Assembly: GCA_944332715.1 (NCBI GenBank) | Contig: CALVKN010000001.1 | Location: 13,415 to 77,414, forward strand | Reading direction: 5' to 3' | DNA: 64,000 bases | Origin: an uncultured Bacilli bacterium | Lineage (GTDB): Bacteria > Bacillota_I > Bacilli_A > RF39 > UBA660 | Part shown: positions 3,012 to 55,221 of the stretch, in pieces | How positions within the stretch are numbered: position 1 is the stretch's first letter | Layout of the letters: each line of letters starts with the position of its first letter | Made by a program: the position numbers and the translations under genes | Notes under the pieces: model-generated | The model's database searches: none | Told to the model about the DNA's origin: nothing | The model's input: only the letters and a program-made list of their open reading frames with translations

Positions 3012-3548
3012 TTAATTTGCTGTTTCATTTAAATAATTTTCATCAATTTCATTTAATACATCATCATCAACTTCATCATATATTTCATCGTAATCATCAA
3101 AAGTATCTTCCACACTTATTTTTACCTTGGTATCTCCAACAATTTCTACACCCATTTCTTTTTCGATTTCCAAATTCACATTAGCACCATCGACACTAAC
3201 ATTAGCAACTGTTGGCTGACGAAGACATCTAACAATTATTTCTGAGGTATCAGTTATATCATGATCATCCTTTAAAGGAATATTCATAGTATCGCTATAA
3301 GAAAAATTCTTTGTAGTAACTGCTGTAGATTTATCGTTATTATATGAATACCAAACATTAACATCAAAAGAGCCTGTAACTAAAACACTACCATTTGCAT
3401 TATTTGTTCCACTAAATTTATGGTTAATTACCCAACAACCCAATACTGTATTTGGCATTTCTTCTGGAGTTAATGAAAAACTATTACTGCTACTTTTCTT
3501 TGCTTTACCAATTACTGCCTTAGTTACTATTTCTTTAAAACTAGACAT
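3012..3548 (-). CDS. cotE: outer spore coat morphogenetic protein CotE
   Basis: The N-terminus FKEIVTKAVIGKAKK...VLGCWVINHKF...DVNVWYSY and the acidic C-terminal tail follow the B. subtilis CotE pattern (from memory). Confidence 0.8.
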   Translation of the reverse strand: MSSFKEIVTKAVIGKAKKSSSNSFSLTPEEMPNTVLGCWVINHKFSGTNNANGSVLVTGSFDVNVWYSYNNDKSTAVTTKNFSYSDTMNIPLKDDHDITDTSEIIVRCLRQPTVANVSVDGANVNLEIEKEMGVEIVGDTKVKISVEDTFDDYDEIYDEVDDDVLNEIDENYLNETAN

Positions 3549-20603: not shown

Positions 20604-20708
20604 TACATTCACCTTACTATCAATAGTTTATCATAAATATAAGATTTTTTAAAGTAATAATGCATATAAAAGTGTCTTGGACATATTATTTAATAACGGA
20701 GGGTGTAT

Positions 20709-21194
20709 ATGATAAACAAACAAAATCTATGGTTTATAACATTATTTTCATTAATTTTAGTATTAGGAATTTATTATGTCAGCATGGGAGATGAAACAAT
20801 TAGTGTTCTAGCAGGAGAATCTGATGTAAGTGAAGTTGTTGAGGTTAACAAATCTGATGTCATTGTGGCACTACAAGTTGAAGATGATGAATCGGTCTTA
20901 GAACAAATGACTGAATACCAAAATATTTTACTAGATACTGAAGCAACAATCGAAGAAAAAAATGACGCCTACAATGCCTTACAAGCCTTAAGTAACTCCC
21001 AAAGTGAATGTGAAAAAATAGAAAAGCTTATATCAGATGAATATAAATATGATAATTTTGTTAAAATTGATGGAGATACTATAAGCATAGTCATAGCAAG
21101 CACTGACCACAACAAAGAAATTGCTAATAAAATAATTAGATCTGTCCAAAGCCTTTATAATACTCAAAAATATATAACAGTTAAATTCGAATAA
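20709..21194 (+). CDS. SpoIIIAH-like family protein
   Basis: The N-terminus INKQNLWFITLFSLILVLGIYYV resembles SpoIIIAH (KKQTVWLLTMLSL..VLSVYY). GGAGGG RBS. Confidence 0.5.
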   Translation: MINKQNLWFITLFSLILVLGIYYVSMGDETISVLAGESDVSEVVEVNKSDVIVALQVEDDESVLEQMTEYQNILLDTEATIEEKNDAYNALQALSNSQSECEKIEKLISDEYKYDNFVKIDGDTISIVIASTDHNKEIANKIIRSVQSLYNTQKYITVKFE

Positions 21195-21491: not shown

Positions 21492-21523
21492 TTCTTTAAA
21501 ATATAATTAAACAGGTGAATATT

Positions 21524-22456
21524 ATGCTAAAAAAATCATCTCTAAGAAGAATAATGGTAGCAACACTTGCTCTATTTATTTTACTTATAATCTATTTTTT
21601 CCCTACTACAAGCGAGTTTAAAGAAACACTATCCTATATCGAAAAAGAAGAAATACCTATATTTTTAGTTGATAGCATGGAATATATTGCTAGAACAAGC
21701 ATTGTAAAAGAAAGCGAAACTACCGAAGAATTAATTGAGGAAGTAATTGACTCCTTAACTATTGGCAGCGAAAAATCTAACTATATCCGTGATGGTTTTA
21801 AAGGTATAATTCCTAAAAATACTAAAGTTTTAGACACTACTCTTGAAGGAAACATTTTAACAATTAATTTTAGTAAAGAATTTTTAAATGTATCAGAAAG
21901 TGATGAAGAAAAGATGTTTGAAGCACTAACTTATTCTTTACTTGAAATACCTGAAATAAAAAAAATAAGTATCTTAGTTGAAGGAGAAAAACTAAAAAAC
22001 TTACCTAATTCTAAAAAAAAATTACCAGAATTTTTAGATCGTAATTTTGGTATTAATAAAATCTATAACTTAGATTCCATTAAAGATACTAGTAAAACAA
22101 CTATATATTACTTGAGTAAATATAATGATTATTATTACTATGTTCCAGTTACAAAAATTAGCAATGATGCAACTGAAAAAGTTGAAATAATAATAAATGA
22201 ATTGAAATCAACTCCTATTTATCACACTAATTTAATTAGTTATTTAGCAGCATCAACTAACATAACTAATTATGAATTACTTGAAAATAGTATTACTCTG
22301 TCTTTCAACAATCACCTACTTGCTAATTTGAAAGATGAAGAAATGCTTGAAGAAGTCAAATACTCTATTGCCCTATCTATGCGTGATAGTTATGGCGTTG
22401 AAGAAGTACTATTTAATTTTCCAGATAGCGAAACTGAAGTTATGGCTTTATCATAA
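21524..22456 (+). CDS. gerM: GerM-like sporulation/germination protein (two GerMN-type domains)
   Basis: N-terminal membrane anchor and a repeated ~130-aa domain architecture. Located next to gerE. AGGTGA RBS before ATG 21524. Confidence 0.65.
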   Translation: MLKKSSLRRIMVATLALFILLIIYFFPTTSEFKETLSYIEKEEIPIFLVDSMEYIARTSIVKESETTEELIEEVIDSLTIGSEKSNYIRDGFKGIIPKNTKVLDTTLEGNILTINFSKEFLNVSESDEEKMFEALTYSLLEIPEIKKISILVEGEKLKNLPNSKKKLPEFLDRNFGINKIYNLDSIKDTSKTTIYYLSKYNDYYYYVPVTKISNDATEKVEIIINELKSTPIYHTNLISYLAASTNITNYELLENSITLSFNNHLLANLKDEEMLEEVKYSIALSMRDSYGVEEVLFNFPDSETEVMALS

Positions 22457-22495
22457 AGTATTGATAAATTATCAAAAATTTGGTATATTATATAT

Positions 22496-22562
22496 GTAAG
22501 TGTTACCCATAGTGGTGGGTAGCATCTACTATGTTTCGACGCTATTTTAGCGTCTTTTTTCC
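22496..22562 (+). ncRNA. predicted antisense sRNA, copy B; ends are approximate
   Basis: Promoter at 22461-22489. Terminator GACGCT-ATTTT-AGCGTC (22538-22554) plus TTTTTT. Confidence 0.5.
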
Positions 22563-22627
22563 TTTATATCAGCTATTAAACCGAGTGTAATTACTATCAT
22601 TACTAAATAAAATTCATTATCGTTCAT
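22547..22627 (-). CDS. 26-aa hydrophobic peptide (putative type I toxin), copy B
   Basis: MNDNEFYLVMIVITLGLIADIKEKRR, with SD GGGGAGTGAGG. It differs from copy A at 5 of 81 nt. Confidence 0.55.
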   Translation of the reverse strand: MNDNEFYLVMIVITLGLIADIKEKRR

Positions 22628-22857
22628 GACCTCACTCCCCTTTCACCCTGATCTCCCAAGGTACCCCCTGAGAAAAAGAATTACTCAAAAAGCAAAGTAG
22701 ACGCTCCCACTATGGGTAACGGTTAATTATTCTAAAGTTAAAATATTAAAAATACAAGAAAAATCGTACGGCAAAATTCGACATTAGAGTGAAAAATTGT
22801 AGGATACCTTACTTTATACTTGCCAAAATTAATATTTTATACTATAATTTACTTGAT

Positions 22858-22934
22858 GTCCTCGTAGCTCAGCTGGATAGAGCATACGCCTTCTAAGCGT
22901 ACGGTCGAGCGTTCGAATCGCTCCGAGGACACCA
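22858..22934 (+). tRNA. tRNA-Arg (anticodon UCU)
   Basis: Cloverleaf folded by hand: acceptor GTCCTCG/CGAGGAC, anticodon loop CTTCTAA, T-loop GAGCGTTCGAATCGCTC, encoded CCA. Promoter TTGCCA-17-TATAAT is at 22821-22849. Confidence 0.9.
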
Positions 22935-29363: not shown

Positions 29364-29585
29364 TTATTTTAATACATTAAGTACTGAACTAATTAAGTCA
29401 ATATTTTCTACTACATTACTTATTTTATCCGTTACTCTTTCTTTATATACAGCCTTCATTTTATCTTGAAAACTTTTAAAATCTATTACCCCCCGATTAA
29501 AATCTTTTATATAATAAGAATTCTCTTTTAAATGTAAATAATCCTTAGGACTATTTTTAAAAGACATTTGTATATATAGTTGCAT
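29364..29585 (-). CDS. YlbE-like protein
   Basis: 73 aa, immediately downstream of the ylbD-like gene. Pattern similar to B. subtilis YlbE (from memory). Confidence 0.4.
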   Translation of the reverse strand: MQLYIQMSFKNSPKDYLHLKENSYYIKDFNRGVIDFKSFQDKMKAVYKERVTDKISNVVENIDLISSVLNVLK

Positions 29586-29947
29586 TAATCCTCAAAAAAC
29601 TTATTTAATGGCCTTGGGGCAACTGGTCCTTTATTTAAATTATTTGGTATATTTTGTGGTGCTTTTTTAGTTAAATCTTGAACAAAGTCAATTGCTTTTT
29701 GGGCGGTATTGATATGACTTTTAATCGAATTAACATCAACATTTTTAACCATATTAGTTATCTTACTAATACTATCAGTTACATTGCCTCGATCATTATT
29801 TAAAATGTATTTATTCCACACATTTTCATCTTCTCCATAAAGATCATACAATTCATAAAATTTCTGCCAAGTCATTTCACCACTTTGTACATATTTAATT
29901 AGTTCTGGTTTAGTTTTAACAAAATTTCTAAATGCTTCATTTTTCAC
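29585..29947 (-). CDS. YlbD-like putative coat protein
   Basis: FRNFVKTKPELIKYVQSGEMTWQKFYELYDLYGEDENVWNKY parallels YlbD FKQFVKKHP..V..G...WQ..YE.W.L.GED..W..Y. Confidence 0.55.
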   Translation of the reverse strand: MKNEAFRNFVKTKPELIKYVQSGEMTWQKFYELYDLYGEDENVWNKYILNNDRGNVTDSISKITNMVKNVDVNSIKSHINTAQKAIDFVQDLTKKAPQNIPNNLNKGPVAPRPLNKFFED

Positions 29948-48116: not shown

Positions 48117-48893
48117 TTATTTAATTAATTTACGTACATTTTCAATGGCACTTTTTTCTAGTCTTGATACCTGTGCTTGACTAATCCCTAACTCGGAAGC
48201 AATTTCCATCTGCGTTTTACCAATAATAAATCTCTCTAACAAGATAGATTTTTCTCTTTCTTTAATTTTAAGCAAAGCTTTTCTTAAAGATATAAGCATA
48301 TCCTTATCACTATTTTTATCTTTGACATCAGCAATTTGATCAAATAAATAAATCGTATCCCCACCATCATTATAGATAGGTTCAAAAATACTTGCAGGAT
48401 CTTTTAAAGCATCAAGCGCAAATGCAATTTTATACTCTTCAATCCCTAAAGCATCTGCAATAACACTACTATTTGCCTCAACCCCATGCTCTGCCATATA
48501 TTCATCTTTAAATTTAATAATTTGGTATGCTAAATCTTTTATACTTCTACTAACACGCATTGCTGTATTATCCCTGATATATCTTTTAATCTCTCCAATA
48601 ATTAAAGGGACTGCATATGTACTAAGTTTAAGGCCATAAGATAAATCAAAATTATCAATTGCTTTGATTAAACCTATGACCCCAACTTGAAATAAATCAT
48701 CTAAATTTACATCTCCCCTATTAAAAGATCGAAGTATACTTAAAACTAATTTTAAATTGCCATTTATAAGTTCTTCTTTAGCGGTAATATCTCCCTCTCT
48801 ATATCTAACAAATAAATGTATCATTTCTTCATTGGTTAATACTTTAATATCACTTGTATTTATTCCTGTTATATCTACTTTATATTTTGACAT
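48117..48893 (-). CDS. sigG: sporulation sigma factor SigG
   Basis: DDLFQVGVIGLIKAIDNFD, YAVPLIIGEIKRYIRDN, FEPIYNDGGDTIYLFDQI and GISQAQVSRLEK closely parallel B. subtilis SigG. Confidence 0.9.
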   Translation of the reverse strand: MSKYKVDITGINTSDIKVLTNEEMIHLFVRYREGDITAKEELINGNLKLVLSILRSFNRGDVNLDDLFQVGVIGLIKAIDNFDLSYGLKLSTYAVPLIIGEIKRYIRDNTAMRVSRSIKDLAYQIIKFKDEYMAEHGVEANSSVIADALGIEEYKIAFALDALKDPASIFEPIYNDGGDTIYLFDQIADVKDKNSDKDMLISLRKALLKIKEREKSILLERFIIGKTQMEIASELGISQAQVSRLEKSAIENVRKLIK

Positions 48894-48954: not shown

Positions 48955-49635
48955 TTAGTGCATTACTTGACTTAATTTTCTAACTACCTTTTTTTCTATT
49001 CTTGATATATAACTTTGACTAATACCAAGCATCTCTGCCACCTCTTTTTGGGTATATTCAATAGTATTATTAAGGCCATATCTCAAAGTCATAATTTCTT
49101 TATCTCTAGGACTAAGCATTTCAATTTCTTTACTAAGAATCTCTTTATCAACTCTTTTTTCATACTCCTTTGGTACTAATTCGGCATCAGTACCAAGTAT
49201 ATCTTCTAAATGTAGTTCATTACCTTCACTATCATAGTTTAATGCCTCTTCTAAAGATACTTCACTTCTCTTTCTCTTATTCTTACGAAGAAACATAAGT
49301 ATTTCATTACTAATACACCTTGATGCATAAGTTGCTAACTTAATATTTTTATCTATCTTATATGTATTAATTCCTTTAATTAACCCAATTGATCCAATAC
49401 TTACTAAGTCTTCTATATCATATGTTGTATTTTCATATCTTTTAGCTAAGAATACCACTAATCTTAAATTATGTTCAATTAATTTATTTCTTGCTTCTTC
49501 ATCACCTTGCTGCGCTTTAATCAAATACGCAAGTTCCTCTTCCTTACTAAGTGGTGATGGCAGTTTATCAGTTGCCCCAACAAAGAAGACTTCATTATAC
49601 TTACTTTTTAATAGTTCAATTAATTTTCTAAACAT
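48955..49635 (-). CDS. sigE: sporulation sigma factor SigE (pro-sigma-E)
   Basis: Pro-sequence followed by LPSPLSKEEELAYL...ARNKLIEHNLRLVVFLAKRYENT. Confidence 0.9.
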   Translation of the reverse strand: MFRKLIELLKSKYNEVFFVGATDKLPSPLSKEEELAYLIKAQQGDEEARNKLIEHNLRLVVFLAKRYENTTYDIEDLVSIGSIGLIKGINTYKIDKNIKLATYASRCISNEILMFLRKNKRKRSEVSLEEALNYDSEGNELHLEDILGTDAELVPKEYEKRVDKEILSKEIEMLSPRDKEIMTLRYGLNNTIEYTQKEVAEMLGISQSYISRIEKKVVRKLSQVMH

Positions 49636-50423
49636 ATATCCTCCATTAATTTATAATTAAGTAAACAATCACTACCATTTAAATTTATTTTCTCTGGCAC
49701 TAATCCTACCAAATAATTATTAAACACTTGATTATTTACTTTAATATATCTAATACTAAAACACTCAATTAACCCTTGATACCCAACAGTTTTATAAGTT
49801 ACATACATAGGACTTCTTATATTTATATATGGCTCTAATACTTTTTTATTAACAAGTATTACATACTTTTTAGTTATGGGATCTCTTAACTTATTACCTG
49901 TATCTAAAAAACCATTACACTCCAAACACTTACCATTTTTAAATACAATACTAACTTTATAATTATAATTATATGTACTCTTAAACTTTTTATGTTCTCT
50001 TACATACAAAAATAATATAATCGGAGCAACAATCAAAAGAAGTATATAATTAACATTTAACCCTTCAAAATAAAAGACCATCCCTTCCCTTTTATAACTA
50101 AATTCAACATTTAAAAAATATAAAAATCCTCCGAGTATTACACTCGTCATATATAAATAAATCATATTAGCACAAAAATATTTAATGTTTTTATATCCAA
50201 AAGCAATTAATATCATAAGAGCACTAGTAACCACCTTAAGAATAAATAACATTATTTCACCACATGGAAGAAATAATATGGCTAGTGATAATGCTCCAAG
50301 AATAGCACTAAATATTAATCTTCTAAATTTAGTATGCCTTTTTAAAGTTATATCAACAGTCATCATTAAAAGTAAATCATATATAAAATTAAGCATAAAT
50401 ACTAGATCTAAATATATTTTCAT
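49620..50423 (-). CDS. spoIIGA: sigma-E processing peptidase SpoIIGA
   Basis: Five N-terminal TM segments and the aspartic protease motif GFLDTGNKLRDP. The start is set to MKIYLDLVFMLNF. Confidence 0.85.
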   Translation of the reverse strand: MKIYLDLVFMLNFIYDLLLMMTVDITLKRHTKFRRLIFSAILGALSLAILFLPCGEIMLFILKVVTSALMILIAFGYKNIKYFCANMIYLYMTSVILGGFLYFLNVEFSYKREGMVFYFEGLNVNYILLLIVAPIILFLYVREHKKFKSTYNYNYKVSIVFKNGKCLECNGFLDTGNKLRDPITKKYVILVNKKVLEPYINIRSPMYVTYKTVGYQGLIECFSIRYIKVNNQVFNNYLVGLVPEKINLNGSDCLLNYKLMEDICLEN

Positions 50424-50465
50424 ACCAATCACGAAATGATTATACAAAAAAAAGAGCGACTAATT

Positions 50466-50482
50466 TGTCGCTTTATGTCGAA
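50466..50482. promoter_or_regulatory. tandem Spo0A-box-like motifs TGTCGCT-tta-TGTCGAA upstream of spoIIGA
   Basis: 10-bp phased boxes about 25-40 nt upstream of the TATAAT (reverse complement of 50439-50444). Reading in the gene direction gives TTCGACAtaaAGCGACA. Confidence 0.45.
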
Positions 50483-50598
50483 GATATTAATTTTTTTATT
50501 TATCTACCTTTGTGATAATATCAATTAACACATCTTTAAATAACTTTAATATAAATTAAATGACAGCCTTACAAATAAATATAAGGATACAAGTTTAT

Positions 50599-52975: not shown

Positions 52976-54304
52976 TCAATTCAAAGTGTTAGAATTGATT
53001 TTCCATTCTCCCTTTTTAGTAGCCCCACATCTTTGAATTACACCTAAATCAATAAGGGACTTTATATTTTTTTGTATTGCTCTAACTGTAATATCTAAAA
53101 GTCTAGCTAACTCTTTTTGAGTAATTCTAGGATTATCACTCATTAATTTAACAATTGCTTGCTGCGTAATAGATAAATTAACTTTATCTTTAAACTCCAT
53201 TTTCTTTGATTCATCAAATTTGTTTTTCTTAAAGGGAAAACTGACTCTTATAAAATTTGGGAAAAATTCAAAAGATTGTTTAGAATAACTTTTAAGAATT
53301 CTAATAATTCCAGTACCCATTTGTTCTACTAATTCCAAATCTCTAAATACTTTCATTAACTCAGGATTTTTAGGTAAAGAAAATCCCTTTAAAAAATCTT
53401 CCTCAGTTATATTATCTTGAATACCACCATTTGATGATACTGCTAACTTATCACTAAACATTTCTACTTTTGGAGCATAACCATTCGCCCAATCATTATG
53501 AACAATAGCATTAATGACCGCTTCTCTAACTGCATCAAAATCAAACATTTCAATTTCTTTCCTCTGTGGATACCCTACTTTAGTATATATTTTATTTTCT
53601 ATCTTTAGTTTCTCTAACATACTTTTAGTTGCCTTAACAATAGAACAACAACCGAAATCTTCATTTTCTATCAAATCAATTGCTTGTGTCCCACTATATT
53701 TTCCAAATCTAATGGGAATATTGTTATTATCAGAAAGCAAAAATGCATTCATATTATATAAACCATCATCTGTGAAAAAACCTAACTGCCTCAAAAAATT
53801 ATCATTAACAATAATTTTTTTCTCTTCATAATATATTTTCAATTGCGTAAAAGATAAATCCTGCTCTGGAGATTCTATTTTCTTTAATGAATTTCTAACC
53901 CTTTTTACAAAAGTATTATTTATAATATCATATGGCATACTTTGAACTGCACTACCAACACGCATAAAACAACTTTCTGGAGTCATCCCCATCCCTTTTA
54001 AATAATATGGTCTTTCTACTCCCCTAGCAACAATTATTTTAATATATTTTTTATCTTCATAATCTAATACTGCAACATCATATAAACCTATTGTTGATGG
54101 CATAATATTATCTTTAATACGATCCTTTATTGTTCTTTGTAACAAATCTACATCTAAATTAAGCCCAACAACATTACCAGTATCATCAACTCCAATAAAT
54201 ATATTGCCTCCTTGAGTATTTAAAAAAGCAATTACTTCTTTTTCTAAATCATCAGTTAATTTTATTTTAAATTCATTTCTTATATCTTCAATAACATCTA
54301 ACAT
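52976..54304 (-). CDS. AlbA_2 (Schlafen-like) + HATPase_c_4 + winged-HTH protein (the class often annotated RecG-like / putative DNA-binding protein)
   Basis: N-terminus EFKIKLTDDLEKEVIAFLNTQGGNIFIGVDDTGNVVGL; mid region REAVINAIVHNDW; C-terminus ITQKELARLLDITVRAIQKNIKSLIDLGVI. The start lies 7 nt after GGAGG. Confidence 0.7.
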   Translation of the reverse strand: MLDVIEDIRNEFKIKLTDDLEKEVIAFLNTQGGNIFIGVDDTGNVVGLNLDVDLLQRTIKDRIKDNIMPSTIGLYDVAVLDYEDKKYIKIIVARGVERPYYLKGMGMTPESCFMRVGSAVQSMPYDIINNTFVKRVRNSLKKIESPEQDLSFTQLKIYYEEKKIIVNDNFLRQLGFFTDDGLYNMNAFLLSDNNNIPIRFGKYSGTQAIDLIENEDFGCCSIVKATKSMLEKLKIENKIYTKVGYPQRKEIEMFDFDAVREAVINAIVHNDWANGYAPKVEMFSDKLAVSSNGGIQDNITEEDFLKGFSLPKNPELMKVFRDLELVEQMGTGIIRILKSYSKQSFEFFPNFIRVSFPFKKNKFDESKKMEFKDKVNLSITQQAIVKLMSDNPRITQKELARLLDITVRAIQKNIKSLIDLGVIQRCGATKKGEWKINSNTLN

Positions 54305-54336
54305 TAAATTACCTCCATTCATTTAATCTGTTTTTT

Positions 54337-55221
54337 CTATACAAATTTATATTCTTTACTTAATATTCTTTTATCACTACAATATTCCATAATAAATTTA
54401 TTATCTTTCTTACATATGATAATTCCAATTGTTTTATCTTGATTTATTTCTCTTAAGTTCTTATCTATGTAATTCATGTATACTTCTATTTGGCCAATAT
54501 GTTCTTTTTTTAACTCTGTTACTTTTAGTTCTACTACTACGTAACAATTAAACTTAATATTATAAAGAAGCAAATCAATGTAATTATAAGTATTGCCTAT
54601 TTTTATTTTGTATTCATTTTCGACAAATGTAAAACCATCACCTAGTTCTTTTAAAAAAGACGGAATATCTTCTAATATTAATTGTTGTAATACTTTTTCA
54701 GAGATTATTTCTCTATTATTGCTATTTTTTATAACAATAGGATTTTTGATTAAATCAGCTAATGTGGTTTCTTCTTTGGCAATTAATTTTTCTCTAGTAA
54801 TATCATCTAATCTTTCATATTCTTTATTTTTTATTCGTTCACGAAGCTGCCTTACTGATAAATTTTTTTGTTCAGCTACCATAATATAATAATTTATCTC
54901 ATCCAAATTATCTTTTGATAATAGTTCAACATAATGACTATATGATAATTTTGGCGACAGTGTCGCCAATTTTAGATTTAATAAATAAAACTTCTTCATT
55001 TTATTTAACGACGAAACATCATATTTAATACCTATGTCTTGTGTTAATCTTCTAGAATATTCCTTAATAATACCTTCACCATAATGTTTACCTGCTTCAC
55101 TTAAGAGTTTACCAACATTGTAATAGGTAGTTAAATCACTTCTATTCTTACTATAATCTTTTACTCTTTTAGTTATTTCATTATTTATTAATTCATTTTT
55201 GATTTCCTTATAATAGTTCAT
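54337..55221 (-). CDS. DUF1016 / YhcG-type PD-(D/E)xK nuclease-family protein
   Basis: N-terminal helical domain. C-terminal YIDLLLYN...YVVVELKVTELKKEHIGQ provides D...E-x-K. Confidence 0.7.
   Translation of the reverse strand: MNYYKEIKNELINNEITKRVKDYSKNRSDLTTYYNVGKLLSEAGKHYGEGIIKEYSRRLTQDIGIKYDVSSLNKMKKFYLLNLKLATLSPKLSYSHYVELLSKDNLDEINYYIMVAEQKNLSVRQLRERIKNKEYERLDDITREKLIAKEETTLADLIKNPIVIKNSNNREIISEKVLQQLILEDIPSFLKELGDGFTFVENEYKIKIGNTYNYIDLLLYNIKFNCYVVVELKVTELKKEHIGQIEVYMNYIDKNLREINQDKTIGIIICKKDNKFIMEYCSDKRILSKEYKFV

Follow-up and report, generated by a model that had tools for sequence, protein, structure and literature searches.

The question raised by this locus is whether a short intergenic sequence that is repeated within a genome and bounded by perfect inverted repeats is a non-autonomous mobile element or a functional genetic unit. 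The window analysed here, a stretch of 64,000 nucleotides (nt) from the genome of an uncultured Bacilli bacterium (contig CALVKN010000001.1, positions 13,415 to 77,414), contains three such modules of approximately 325 nt: copy A (14731-15051, + strand), copy B (22461-22783, - strand) and copy C (36311-36641, + strand). A previous sequence-only reading of copy B had judged its conservation to be functional and unlike that of a miniature inverted-repeat transposable element (MITE). Comparison of approximately 25 distinct copies from several species agrees with that judgement: the conserved columns are the promoters, the Shine-Dalgarno (SD) sequence, the start codon, a stop codon within a hairpin loop, and the stems. 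The module is best read in a way that goes beyond the earlier claim, as a sense/antisense pair of type I character; copy B is likely to be a member of an undescribed chromosomal family of type I toxin-antitoxin-like peptide modules.

The predicted copy B transcripts and their conserved elements

Copy B extends from the -35 hexamer of an antisense promoter (22461) to the distal of two TGTCGAA-like boxes (22783). On the - strand, a promoter for a peptide mRNA can be read at 22729-22757, consisting of a weak -35 hexamer (TTGTAT, 22757-22752), a 17-bp spacer and a -10 hexamer (TAGAAT, 22734-22729), from which transcription would start at approximately 22723-22721. The predicted mRNA has a length of approximately 225 nt and its ends form a helix of 25-30 bp, in which the 5' arm (GTTACCCATAGTGGGAGCGTCTAC, 22697-22720) pairs with the 3' arm (GTAGATGCTACCCACCACTATGGGTAAC, 22502-22529). 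Between the arms, and on the same strand, an SD sequence (GGGGAG, 22635-22640) lies 7 nt ahead of the ATG starting an open reading frame (ORF; 22547-22627 with its stop codon) that encodes a putative toxin of 26 amino acids (aa), MNDNEFYLVMIVITLGLIADIKEKRR, whose N-terminus is short and polar, whose core is hydrophobic and whose tail is basic. A hairpin (GACGC-TAAAATA-GCGTC, 22538-22554, on both strands) takes in the last codon and the stop codon; the latter sits in its loop, and an 8-nt linker leads from the hairpin to the 3' arm.

On the + strand there is an antisense promoter with an extended -10 element (TTGATA, 17 bp, TGgTATATT; 22461-22489; 10 of 12 matches, with the TG), which by its sequence is near-consensus and stronger than the sense promoter. 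It is predicted to produce an antisense (antitoxin) RNA of approximately 65 nt (22496-22560), with ends placed by the promoter and the terminator. The terminator, identified by a terminator scan, is the same GACGC-TAAAATA-GCGTC hairpin followed on this strand by T6 (22555-22560), so the layout of the RNA is a 5' hairpin, a single-stranded linker, the terminator hairpin and a U-tail (-27.3 kcal/mol, z = -6.1). This RNA is perfectly complementary to the last approximately 65 nt of the mRNA, comprising the final 4-6 codons, the stop codon, the linker and the entire 3' arm, and its own first approximately 30 nt are almost identical in sequence to the 5' arm of the mRNA. No Rfam family was detected at the modules at the gathering threshold, and at E-values up to 10 there was snoRNA-type noise alone.

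A profile search recovered 16 copies in the window and genome loci and 16 more in metagenome loci, and the elements of both units recur among the approximately 25 distinct full-length sequences. In 24 of 25 distinct copies, the antisense promoter keeps TTGnnn and TGnTATATT at a distance of exactly 17 bp, with a spacer that varies in sequence, as had been noted for the three window copies. The predicted antisense RNA measures 63-66 nt in the window copies and 63-76 nt in the full set of 18 distinct sequences in which the terminator could be delimited, all of which have the two-hairpin layout (type 4 was left out of this count because its terminator was not delimited automatically). Two of the six pairs of the terminator stem show compensatory changes (A-U to G-C and G-C to A-U), each in 5 of 18 sequences. 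The sense promoter motif TTGnnT-17-TAGAAT is kept in types 1-4, and class 2 has TTGCAA-16-TATAAT instead.

The ORFs encode five types of peptide of 25-29 aa, with an SD sequence 6-8 nt before the start codon in all types, a hydrophobic core, and a stop codon in or beside the terminator hairpin. These are type 1, MN[DN]NE[FL]YLVMI..IK[ED]KRR; type 2, MNDKxFCQV[IV]IILVL..RGQAKRR, to which the copy C peptide (MNDKIFCQVIIILVLVLFSNRGQAKRR) belongs; type 3, MSNN[IL]FYQLVIILL..EKRHRK; type 4, MNKEEN[KI]STLLVIIILLIVVILRLI; and type 5, a looser class (for example, MNEDIFLQVIIILVIIIYGNQKKDANK). The N-terminal M-N/S-D/E/N motif and the hydrophobic core persist despite nucleotide divergence, and the basic C-terminal tail is encoded by the complement of the antisense terminator U-tract and stem, in a frame that differs among types. 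No Pfam, NCBIfam or PADLOC family was found for any of 17 peptides; matches below threshold were to MgtU (E = 0.022, type 2) and to one Pfam family (E = 0.12).

Several further features of the peptide mRNA were noted. A sigma-H reading of its promoter was rejected, there being no AGGA -35 element. A weak ACACTT...AAGTGT stem followed by a T-run in copy A, considered as a terminator of the peptide mRNA, is not conserved among copies, and the T-run is better read as an A-rich upstream element of the antisense promoter. The 5' untranslated region (UTR) of types 1-4 contains an invariant GGGG(G) run (22661-22665 in copy B, and equivalent positions in A and C), which is replaced in the class-2 loci (L024, L025, L031, L019) by an anti-SD-like tract, CCTCCTCC; class-2 UTRs contain the anti-SD sequence CCUCCUCC. 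The G-run or the anti-SD-like tract may form a metastable co-transcriptional structure.

Inverted repeats, module copies and their chromosomal sites

For the copy B mRNA the folding energy is -81.7 kcal/mol (z = -8.3), a stability reached by none of 200 shuffled sequences, and its first approximately 25 nt pair with its last approximately 28 nt in a closing helix of approximately 25 bp. A closing helix is present in all 12 of the mRNAs folded (-71 to -86 kcal/mol). RNAalifold on MAFFT alignments, of the whole mRNAs and of the antisense RNA, recovered part of this structure; since the registers of the inner arm and of the 5' hairpin differ among types, per-sequence duplex energies, an alignment of the arms only and a matrix of cognate and non-cognate arms were used. 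When only the arms of 20 distinct copies are aligned, 97.5% of the cells of the outer 14-bp helix are paired, and 4 of its 14 pairs show double compensatory changes, such as G-C to U-A in four sequences. Its pairing and covariation scores were matched by 0 of 500 shuffles, and slid controls pair in 31-52% of cells.

For the inner helix there are at least five versions, unrelated in sequence: GAGCGUCUAC / GUAGAUGCU, AGUGCCUGUUUA / UAAACAGGUGCU, UAGUGCCUGC / GCAGGCAUUA, GCAGCGCCGA / UCGGCGUU and GAUAGCGUCUGCUAG / UUUGGUAGGCGUUUCC. Inner arms pair within their class and poorly across classes (for type 3, -16.4 with its own arm versus -5.9 to -8.8 with type 1 or type 2 arms). Of the two strands, that of the mRNA gives the more stable arm duplex in 24 of 26 distinct entries, in the extreme case at -39.4 versus -14.2 kcal/mol, because imperfections are G.U pairs on the mRNA strand and C.A mismatches on the other; the two exceptions are a pseudogene (L011) and a spurious internal match (L031). 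Thus, with arms that covary and wobble pairs that are legal on the mRNA strand only, the inverted repeats are RNA structure and not transposon ends. The stems of both the arms and the terminator are among the conserved elements that the earlier reading had expected of a functional module.

The 14-bp perfect inverted repeats of the window modules, GTTACCCATAGTGG / CCACTATGGGTAAC, are the outer part of this helix. An alignment of copies A, B and C spans the module from the TGTCGAA box to the TTGAAT/TTGATA hexamer on the far side and continues outside the repeats through both promoter regions, as had been claimed; its best-conserved parts are both arms (GTTACCCATAGTGGGAGCGTCT(A/G)C and GTAGATGCT(A/C)CCCACCACTATGGGTAAC), the GC-rich hairpin and both flanking promoter regions. 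A sequence said to be common to all three copies, the 23-mer ACTTACATATATAATATACCAAA, has exactly three matches in the window (15011, + strand; 22479-22501, - strand; 36601, + strand) and none in shuffled sequence. A count of 5 differences in 81 nt between the ORFs of copies B and A (22627-22547 versus 14885-14965) was reproduced, and the 5' UTR between the arm and the SD sequence (alignment columns 133-160) is, as reported earlier, far more diverged than the ORF. The three copies have the first 34 nt of the antisense RNA in common, with one mismatch in C.

All three copies do occupy spacers between core genes. Copy B is located, on the opposite strand, between the gene for GerM with its two Germane domains (21515-22456) and that for tRNA-Arg(UCU) (22858-22934). 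Copy A, between ackA and thiI on the + strand, has boxes at 14731-37 and 14741-47, a -35 hexamer at 14757-62, a -10 hexamer at 14780-85, a 5' arm at 14794-14817, the ORF at 14885-14965, the hairpin at 14957-75 and a 3' arm at 14983-15010; its antisense RNA is predicted at approximately 15016-14954 on the - strand, from a -10 element at 15023-28 and a -35 element at 15046-51. Copy C, on the + strand between an E/K-rich gene and the gene for YneF (69 aa; 36672-36881), has boxes at 36311-17 and 36321-27, a -35 hexamer at 36337-42, a -10 hexamer at 36360-65, a 5' arm at 36374-97, the ORF at 36471-36554, the hairpin at 36546-64 and a 3' arm at 36573-36600, with a predicted antisense RNA at approximately 36606-36542 on the - strand.

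Beyond these three, approximately 30 copies were found, all from uncultured low-GC spore-forming gut Bacilli (Onthocola-like bins and gut metagenomes). A scan of 185,579 species genomes with an 18-mer found true modules only in four bins named 'uncultured Bacilli' and in Candidatus Onthocola stercoravium (Bacilli incertae sedis), the module-bearing genomes being of 25-31% G+C; nine further matches to the 18-mer were dismissed as chance occurrences in unrelated taxa of 35-51% G+C. A degenerate 20-base pattern located 15 more loci in metagenomes, several of them from human gut assemblies. BLAST of plasmid and phage collections with the module gave no match, and a scan of viral contigs gave one chance match inside a coding region and no module. 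By these comparisons, the peptide module family is lineage-restricted and chromosomal.

Copy number varies within the lineage. There are tandem arrays of three modules (L008) and of two (L003, L006, L022), and at least six copies are present in a single genome bin (BRZ_DE__bin3). The ORF is broken or deleted, with the antisense side retained, at L011, L021 and L035b. The contig of L011 is syntenic with the 13-22.5 kb portion of the window (57-94% protein identity, most genes 75-94%), and at its ackA/thiI site, which is the site of copy A, there is a pseudogenised module with a frameshifted ORF and a weakened helix. At this site in sister genomes (L011:6639-6967 and L021:4025-4356) the frameshift of the ORF and the weakening of the arm helix are found together with an intact antisense promoter and terminator, and at L035:5526-5659 there is a deletion derivative reduced to the 0A boxes fused to the antisense gene. 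These ORF-less copies may be orphan antitoxins.

As to whether the insertion sites are orthologous or variable, a point that the sequence-only reading had left for comparison, most are orthologous between species, the copy A site among them, but not all: in L011 the spacer between gerM and tRNA-Arg, which is the site of copy B, is approximately 60 nt long and contains no module. Comparison of the filled with the empty site delimits a unit of approximately 350 nt that includes both promoters, without a target-site duplication at the copy B junction; this unit has therefore been gained or lost whole at least once. Other sites shared between species are beside a ClpB/C-like ATPase gene and beside an FAD oxidoreductase gene. 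In three species the same type 1 module lies between genes for an HD-domain phosphohydrolase and a 371-aa reverse transcriptase (RVT_1) (L004:2717-3829, L010:2891-4003, L018:3962-5074); this reverse transcriptase could belong to a retron, a group II intron or a defence system.

If the module were a MITE or other non-autonomous mobile element, its repeats would be transposase-binding ends and its ORF incidental, and this would suit the perfection of the inverted repeats, the presence of several copies per genome and the emptiness of the copy B site in a sister genome. An IS3-like transposase is even at hand, encoded at the left edge of the window by a pair of ORFs (HTH_28 and then rve integrase core; 368-1587, + strand), which is unrelated to the modules. 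A MITE would be conserved up to its terminal repeats, however, and conservation here does not end at GTTACCCATAGTGG but reaches approximately 75 bp beyond the 5' repeat and approximately 50 bp beyond the 3' repeat, over the two promoters. The inner part of the helix varies in sequence yet covaries, and terminal repeats acting at the level of DNA would have no need of mismatches that are G.U pairs on one strand only. The clean junction of copy B, the retention of the ORF, SD sequence and terminator in most copies, the orthology of most sites and the lack of copies in plasmid, phage or viral collections also count against a mobile element. This explanation is largely refuted and may be put aside as extremely improbable; the data fit chromosomal type I toxin-antitoxin loci that undergo duplication, decay and, now and then, gain or loss.

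Boxes upstream of the peptide promoter

Upstream of the -35 hexamer of the peptide promoter, copy B has two heptamers that resemble the binding site of Spo0A (0A boxes). The distal box, TGTCGAA (22777-22783, - strand), is a perfect Spo0A-box core and is positioned at -63 from GTTACC in 18 of 24 upstream regions; the proximal box, TGCCGTA (22767-22773, - strand), begins 3 bp after it, giving a 10-bp phasing. Types 1-4 have TGTCGAA-like heptamers at -63 and -53 from GTTACC, and class 2 has boxes at -77, -67, -57 and -47, of which up to three are perfect. Across the family there are two to four boxes with a period that is always 10 bp (7 + 3), embedded in sequence that differs between classes, and such fixed, phased boxes were found in 22 of 23 genuine distinct upstream regions.

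The G2, C4 and G5 positions of the first box, invariant in an alignment of 16 copies, are the base contacts of Spo0A (PMC3485338), and two boxes 3 bp apart constitute a footprinted Spo0A site in phages phi29 and Nf (PMC2731898). With one mismatch or fewer, the tandem pattern TGNCGAANNNTGNCGNA matches the window at the three modules only, where 0.13 matches are expected by chance. Perfect TGTCGAA occurs six times in the 64 kb: three times in the modules, once at spoIIGA and twice inside genes.

The spoIIG operon is a textbook Spo0A-activated sigma-A operon, and its promoter therefore serves as an internal positive control. In the window, spoIIGA (49620-50447), sigE (48955-49635) and sigG (48117-48893) are present in the classical operon order on the - strand, and the spoIIGA promoter (50448-50500, - strand) reads TTCGACA-TAA-AGCGACA-(22 nt)-TATAAT with a TG extension, that is, tandem boxes in reverse orientation with a 3-bp spacer. 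The sporulation proteins encoded in the window are SpoIIGA, sigma-E, sigma-G, CotE (3012-3548, - strand), GerM, a SpoIIIAH-like protein (20703-21194, + strand, beside gerM) and a YlbD-like coat protein (29585-29947, - strand). Thus, as CotE and the SpoIIIAH-like and YlbD-like proteins indicate, this uncultured Bacilli lineage of 28% G+C keeps the endospore programme.

The balance tips slightly towards binding of phosphorylated Spo0A (Spo0A~P) to the module boxes, which would place the peptide promoters under Spo0A control. The weakness of the -35 hexamer (TTGnnT) and the location of the boxes upstream of it favour activation as the direction of this control.

Two other features of the window were recorded. 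Between the spoIIG region and ftsA-ftsZ, a Schlafen AlbA_2 / HATPase_c_4 / wHTH protein (448 aa) adjoins a YhcG-type PDDEXK nuclease (294 aa) at 52976-55221 (- strand), in an arrangement suggestive of a small islet of defence or mobile genes. Directly upstream of a 610-aa ORF (61217-63049) that, judged by position, is presumably glmS, there is a glmS ribozyme (Rfam RF00234, 69 bits; 61074-61220, + strand).

Function, mechanism and known type I systems

Sequence and comparison establish the anatomy of the module, its promoter and terminator motifs, the covarying helices, the conservation of the ORF, the lineage restriction and the copy-number dynamics, and a mechanism can be proposed that would join them. 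A weak sigma-A-type promoter behind two phased Spo0A boxes would make the mRNA of approximately 225 nt, and the closing helix would seal its 5' and 3' ends and shield them from exonucleases, so that the message would be stable and translated poorly (SD accessibility is predicted at 0-0.5). The 26-aa hydrophobic peptide with its basic tail is presumed to be membrane-active and toxic; for toxicity as such, the evidence leans mildly in favour. An extended -10 promoter on the other strand, strong and probably constitutive, would make the antisense RNA, whose 5' part closely matches the 5' arm of the mRNA in sequence, so that both would compete for the 3' arm.

Binding would probably begin at the complementary terminator loops or at the linker, after which the perfect antisense duplex would displace the imperfect 5' arm, creating an RNase III substrate and exposing the mRNA ends to exonucleolytic decay. 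Peptide synthesis would be kept off in this manner, as for txpA/RatA and bsrG/SR4 of Bacillus subtilis, and the Spo0A boxes would tie transcription of the peptide mRNA to entry into stationary phase or sporulation. Since the first 34 nt of the antisense RNA are common to the window copies, cross-neutralisation between paralogues is plausible, and it would explain why the antisense block is identical despite diverged ORFs. The complete circuit, in which Spo0A~P turns on several paralogous membrane-toxin mRNAs at sporulation entry and the antitoxin acts by strand exchange that unseals the message, is put forward tentatively, as a possibility that is rather doubtful in its entirety.

Two other functions can be weighed against a toxin-antitoxin pair. 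The products might be non-toxic small membrane peptides with a role at the onset of sporulation, such as regulators or accessory subunits of a membrane protein, induced by Spo0A and tuned by a cis-antisense RNA; many small membrane proteins of Gram-positive bacteria are regulators and not toxins, box arrays in a spore-former and locations in the core chromosome instead of prophages would be natural for such peptides, and the type 2 match to MgtU, though below the cutoff, is to a small regulatory protein. Against housekeeping small proteins, however, stand the multiple divergent paralogues and tandem arrays, the repeated pseudogenisation of the ORF with the antisense gene retained, the extremely structured, end-sealed mRNA and an antisense promoter stronger than the sense promoter, which together are the classic type I signature; this alternative is improbable. 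The module might also act through RNA only, as a structured pair of sense and antisense noncoding RNAs or a sponge, with the ORF a by-product of AT-rich sequence. Constraints at the level of RNA do dominate, the arms and terminator being best conserved, codon-position bias is weak, and one and the same terminator sequence yields different peptide C-termini according to the frame (KRR* versus KDANK*). Yet an SD sequence 6-8 nt before ATG or TTG and a frame of 25-29 codons are kept in five highly diverged types, open frames persist against a 28% G+C background in which stop codons are frequent, the hydrophobic core and the N-terminal motif outlast the nucleotide divergence, and second codon positions are the least variable, so that an RNA-only product seems very improbable.

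The type I toxin-antitoxin reading is preferred to both, and several observations weigh against it or against its parts. The hydrophobic core of the peptides, at approximately 14-17 residues, is short; variable sites within types fall at codon positions 1, 2 and 3 in the numbers 13, 7 and 16, a bias that is weak and weakly informative; and the peptide mRNA has no visible terminator. The very existence of the antisense RNA is predicted, as are the two start sites and both RNA ends, and the absence of known relatives of the peptide and the RNA is as judged against Pfam, NCBIfam, PADLOC and Rfam. Predicted SD accessibility is nearly unchanged in silico when the antisense target is blocked, and an antisense-driven translational switch is therefore not claimed. 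As regards the regulator, a search of approximately 314 kb of genome fragments for spo0A, with a B. subtilis Spo0A query, found an unrelated receiver domain only; Spo0A is, to our knowledge, universal in endospore formers. Because the boxes are in forward orientation in the modules and reversed at spoIIGA, they do not distinguish activation from repression.

The module shares the general features of type I systems: a small (<60 aa) hydrophobic ORF with its own SD sequence on a short structured mRNA, a cis-antisense RNA with its own promoter and terminator (predicted in silico), and paralogous or tandem copies that undergo decay of the toxin with retention of the antitoxin. Antisense RNAs that overlap the 3' end are the rule in Gram-positive type I families (PMC8594479), and RNase III cleavage and initiation at terminator loops are documented for txpA/RatA, bsrG/SR4, bsrE/SR5 and yonT/SR6 of B. 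subtilis (PMC6562991). The module resembles these four in its Gram-positive host, its convergent genes, its small hydrophobic peptide, an antisense RNA overlapping the toxin mRNA at its 3' end, where the last part of the ORF is also covered, an antisense terminator loop free for loop-loop initiation, and RNase III cleavage of the duplex as the expected mode of action. The B. subtilis toxins have 38-59 aa and their antisense RNAs approximately 180-220 nt, whereas the module peptides are half that size and the predicted antisense RNA is much shorter. Unlike those systems, the modules have no match to known families of toxins (Pfam, NCBIfam) or antitoxins (Rfam), are located in spacers between core genes and not in prophage or skin elements, present the 3' arm of an end-closing helix as the antisense target, and have arrays of putative Spo0A boxes before the toxin promoter.

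A long-distance lock between the 5' and 3' ends of the mRNA, and multi-copy chromosomal loci, are shared with hok/Sok (plasmid R1 and enterobacteria) and aapA/IsoA (Helicobacter pylori). There, 3' trimming has to open the lock before the antisense RNA can bind, and the binding site is in the 5' part of the mRNA. The antisense RNA of the module instead mimics the 5' arm and is complementary to the very 3' arm that forms the lock; in addition, no mok-type leader ORF is evident, the host is Gram-positive, and the peptides have no similarity to Hok or AapA. With fst/RNAII (the par locus of pAD1, Enterococcus) the module has in common convergent transcription, a terminator hairpin common to both RNAs, a hydrophobic peptide of approximately 30 aa and a repeat at both ends of the locus that creates relationships between the RNAs, and in fst/RNAII, too, an intramolecular helix from the 5' end to a downstream segment stabilises the toxin mRNA. 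The par repeats are direct, however, so that the antisense RNA has a 5' end complementary to the translation-initiation region of the toxin, whereas the inverted repeats of the module make this end identical to the 5' arm of the mRNA and complementary to the 3' arm. The module terminator also differs in having a U-tract on the antisense side only, and no module peptide matches any Pfam family, among which the Fst family would be included.

Control of a type I toxin promoter by a global regulator through conserved operator boxes has parallels in tisB, symE and dinQ of E. coli, which carry LexA boxes (PMC6562991). There the regulator responds to stress and LexA overlaps the promoter, whereas the regulator suggested here is the developmental regulator Spo0A, acting through phased TGTCGAA boxes upstream of the -35 hexamer. 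In literature searches and in reviews on type I systems, no report was found of a type I toxin with Spo0A boxes.

Type I loci are badly under-annotated, since their peptides are below the limits of gene callers and their RNAs are lineage-specific, and the three copies described here stood unannotated within 64 kb of core chromosome. For gut Bacilli of a large uncultured branch, the family provides a fully specified architecture (two promoters, SD sequence, ORF, terminator and end-sealing helix), and its conserved signatures of 20-25 nt are a simple probe with which to find and count such loci in metagenomes. It combines two features usually found in separate families, a 5'/3' lock like that of hok and aapA and a 3'-overlapping antitoxin like those of Bacillus, with the antitoxin directed at the lock. 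If the phased Spo0A boxes do function as operators, the family would link type I toxins directly with the master regulator of sporulation, and the connection between toxin-antitoxin biology and the developmental choices of gut spore-formers could be put to the test. Should the complete circuit prove true, it could impose a threshold on sporulation or mark its point of no return, or could drive killing of mother cells or siblings, analogous to Spo0A-controlled cannibalism, and the orphan antisense genes and shared arm sequences would then let paralogues cross-protect.

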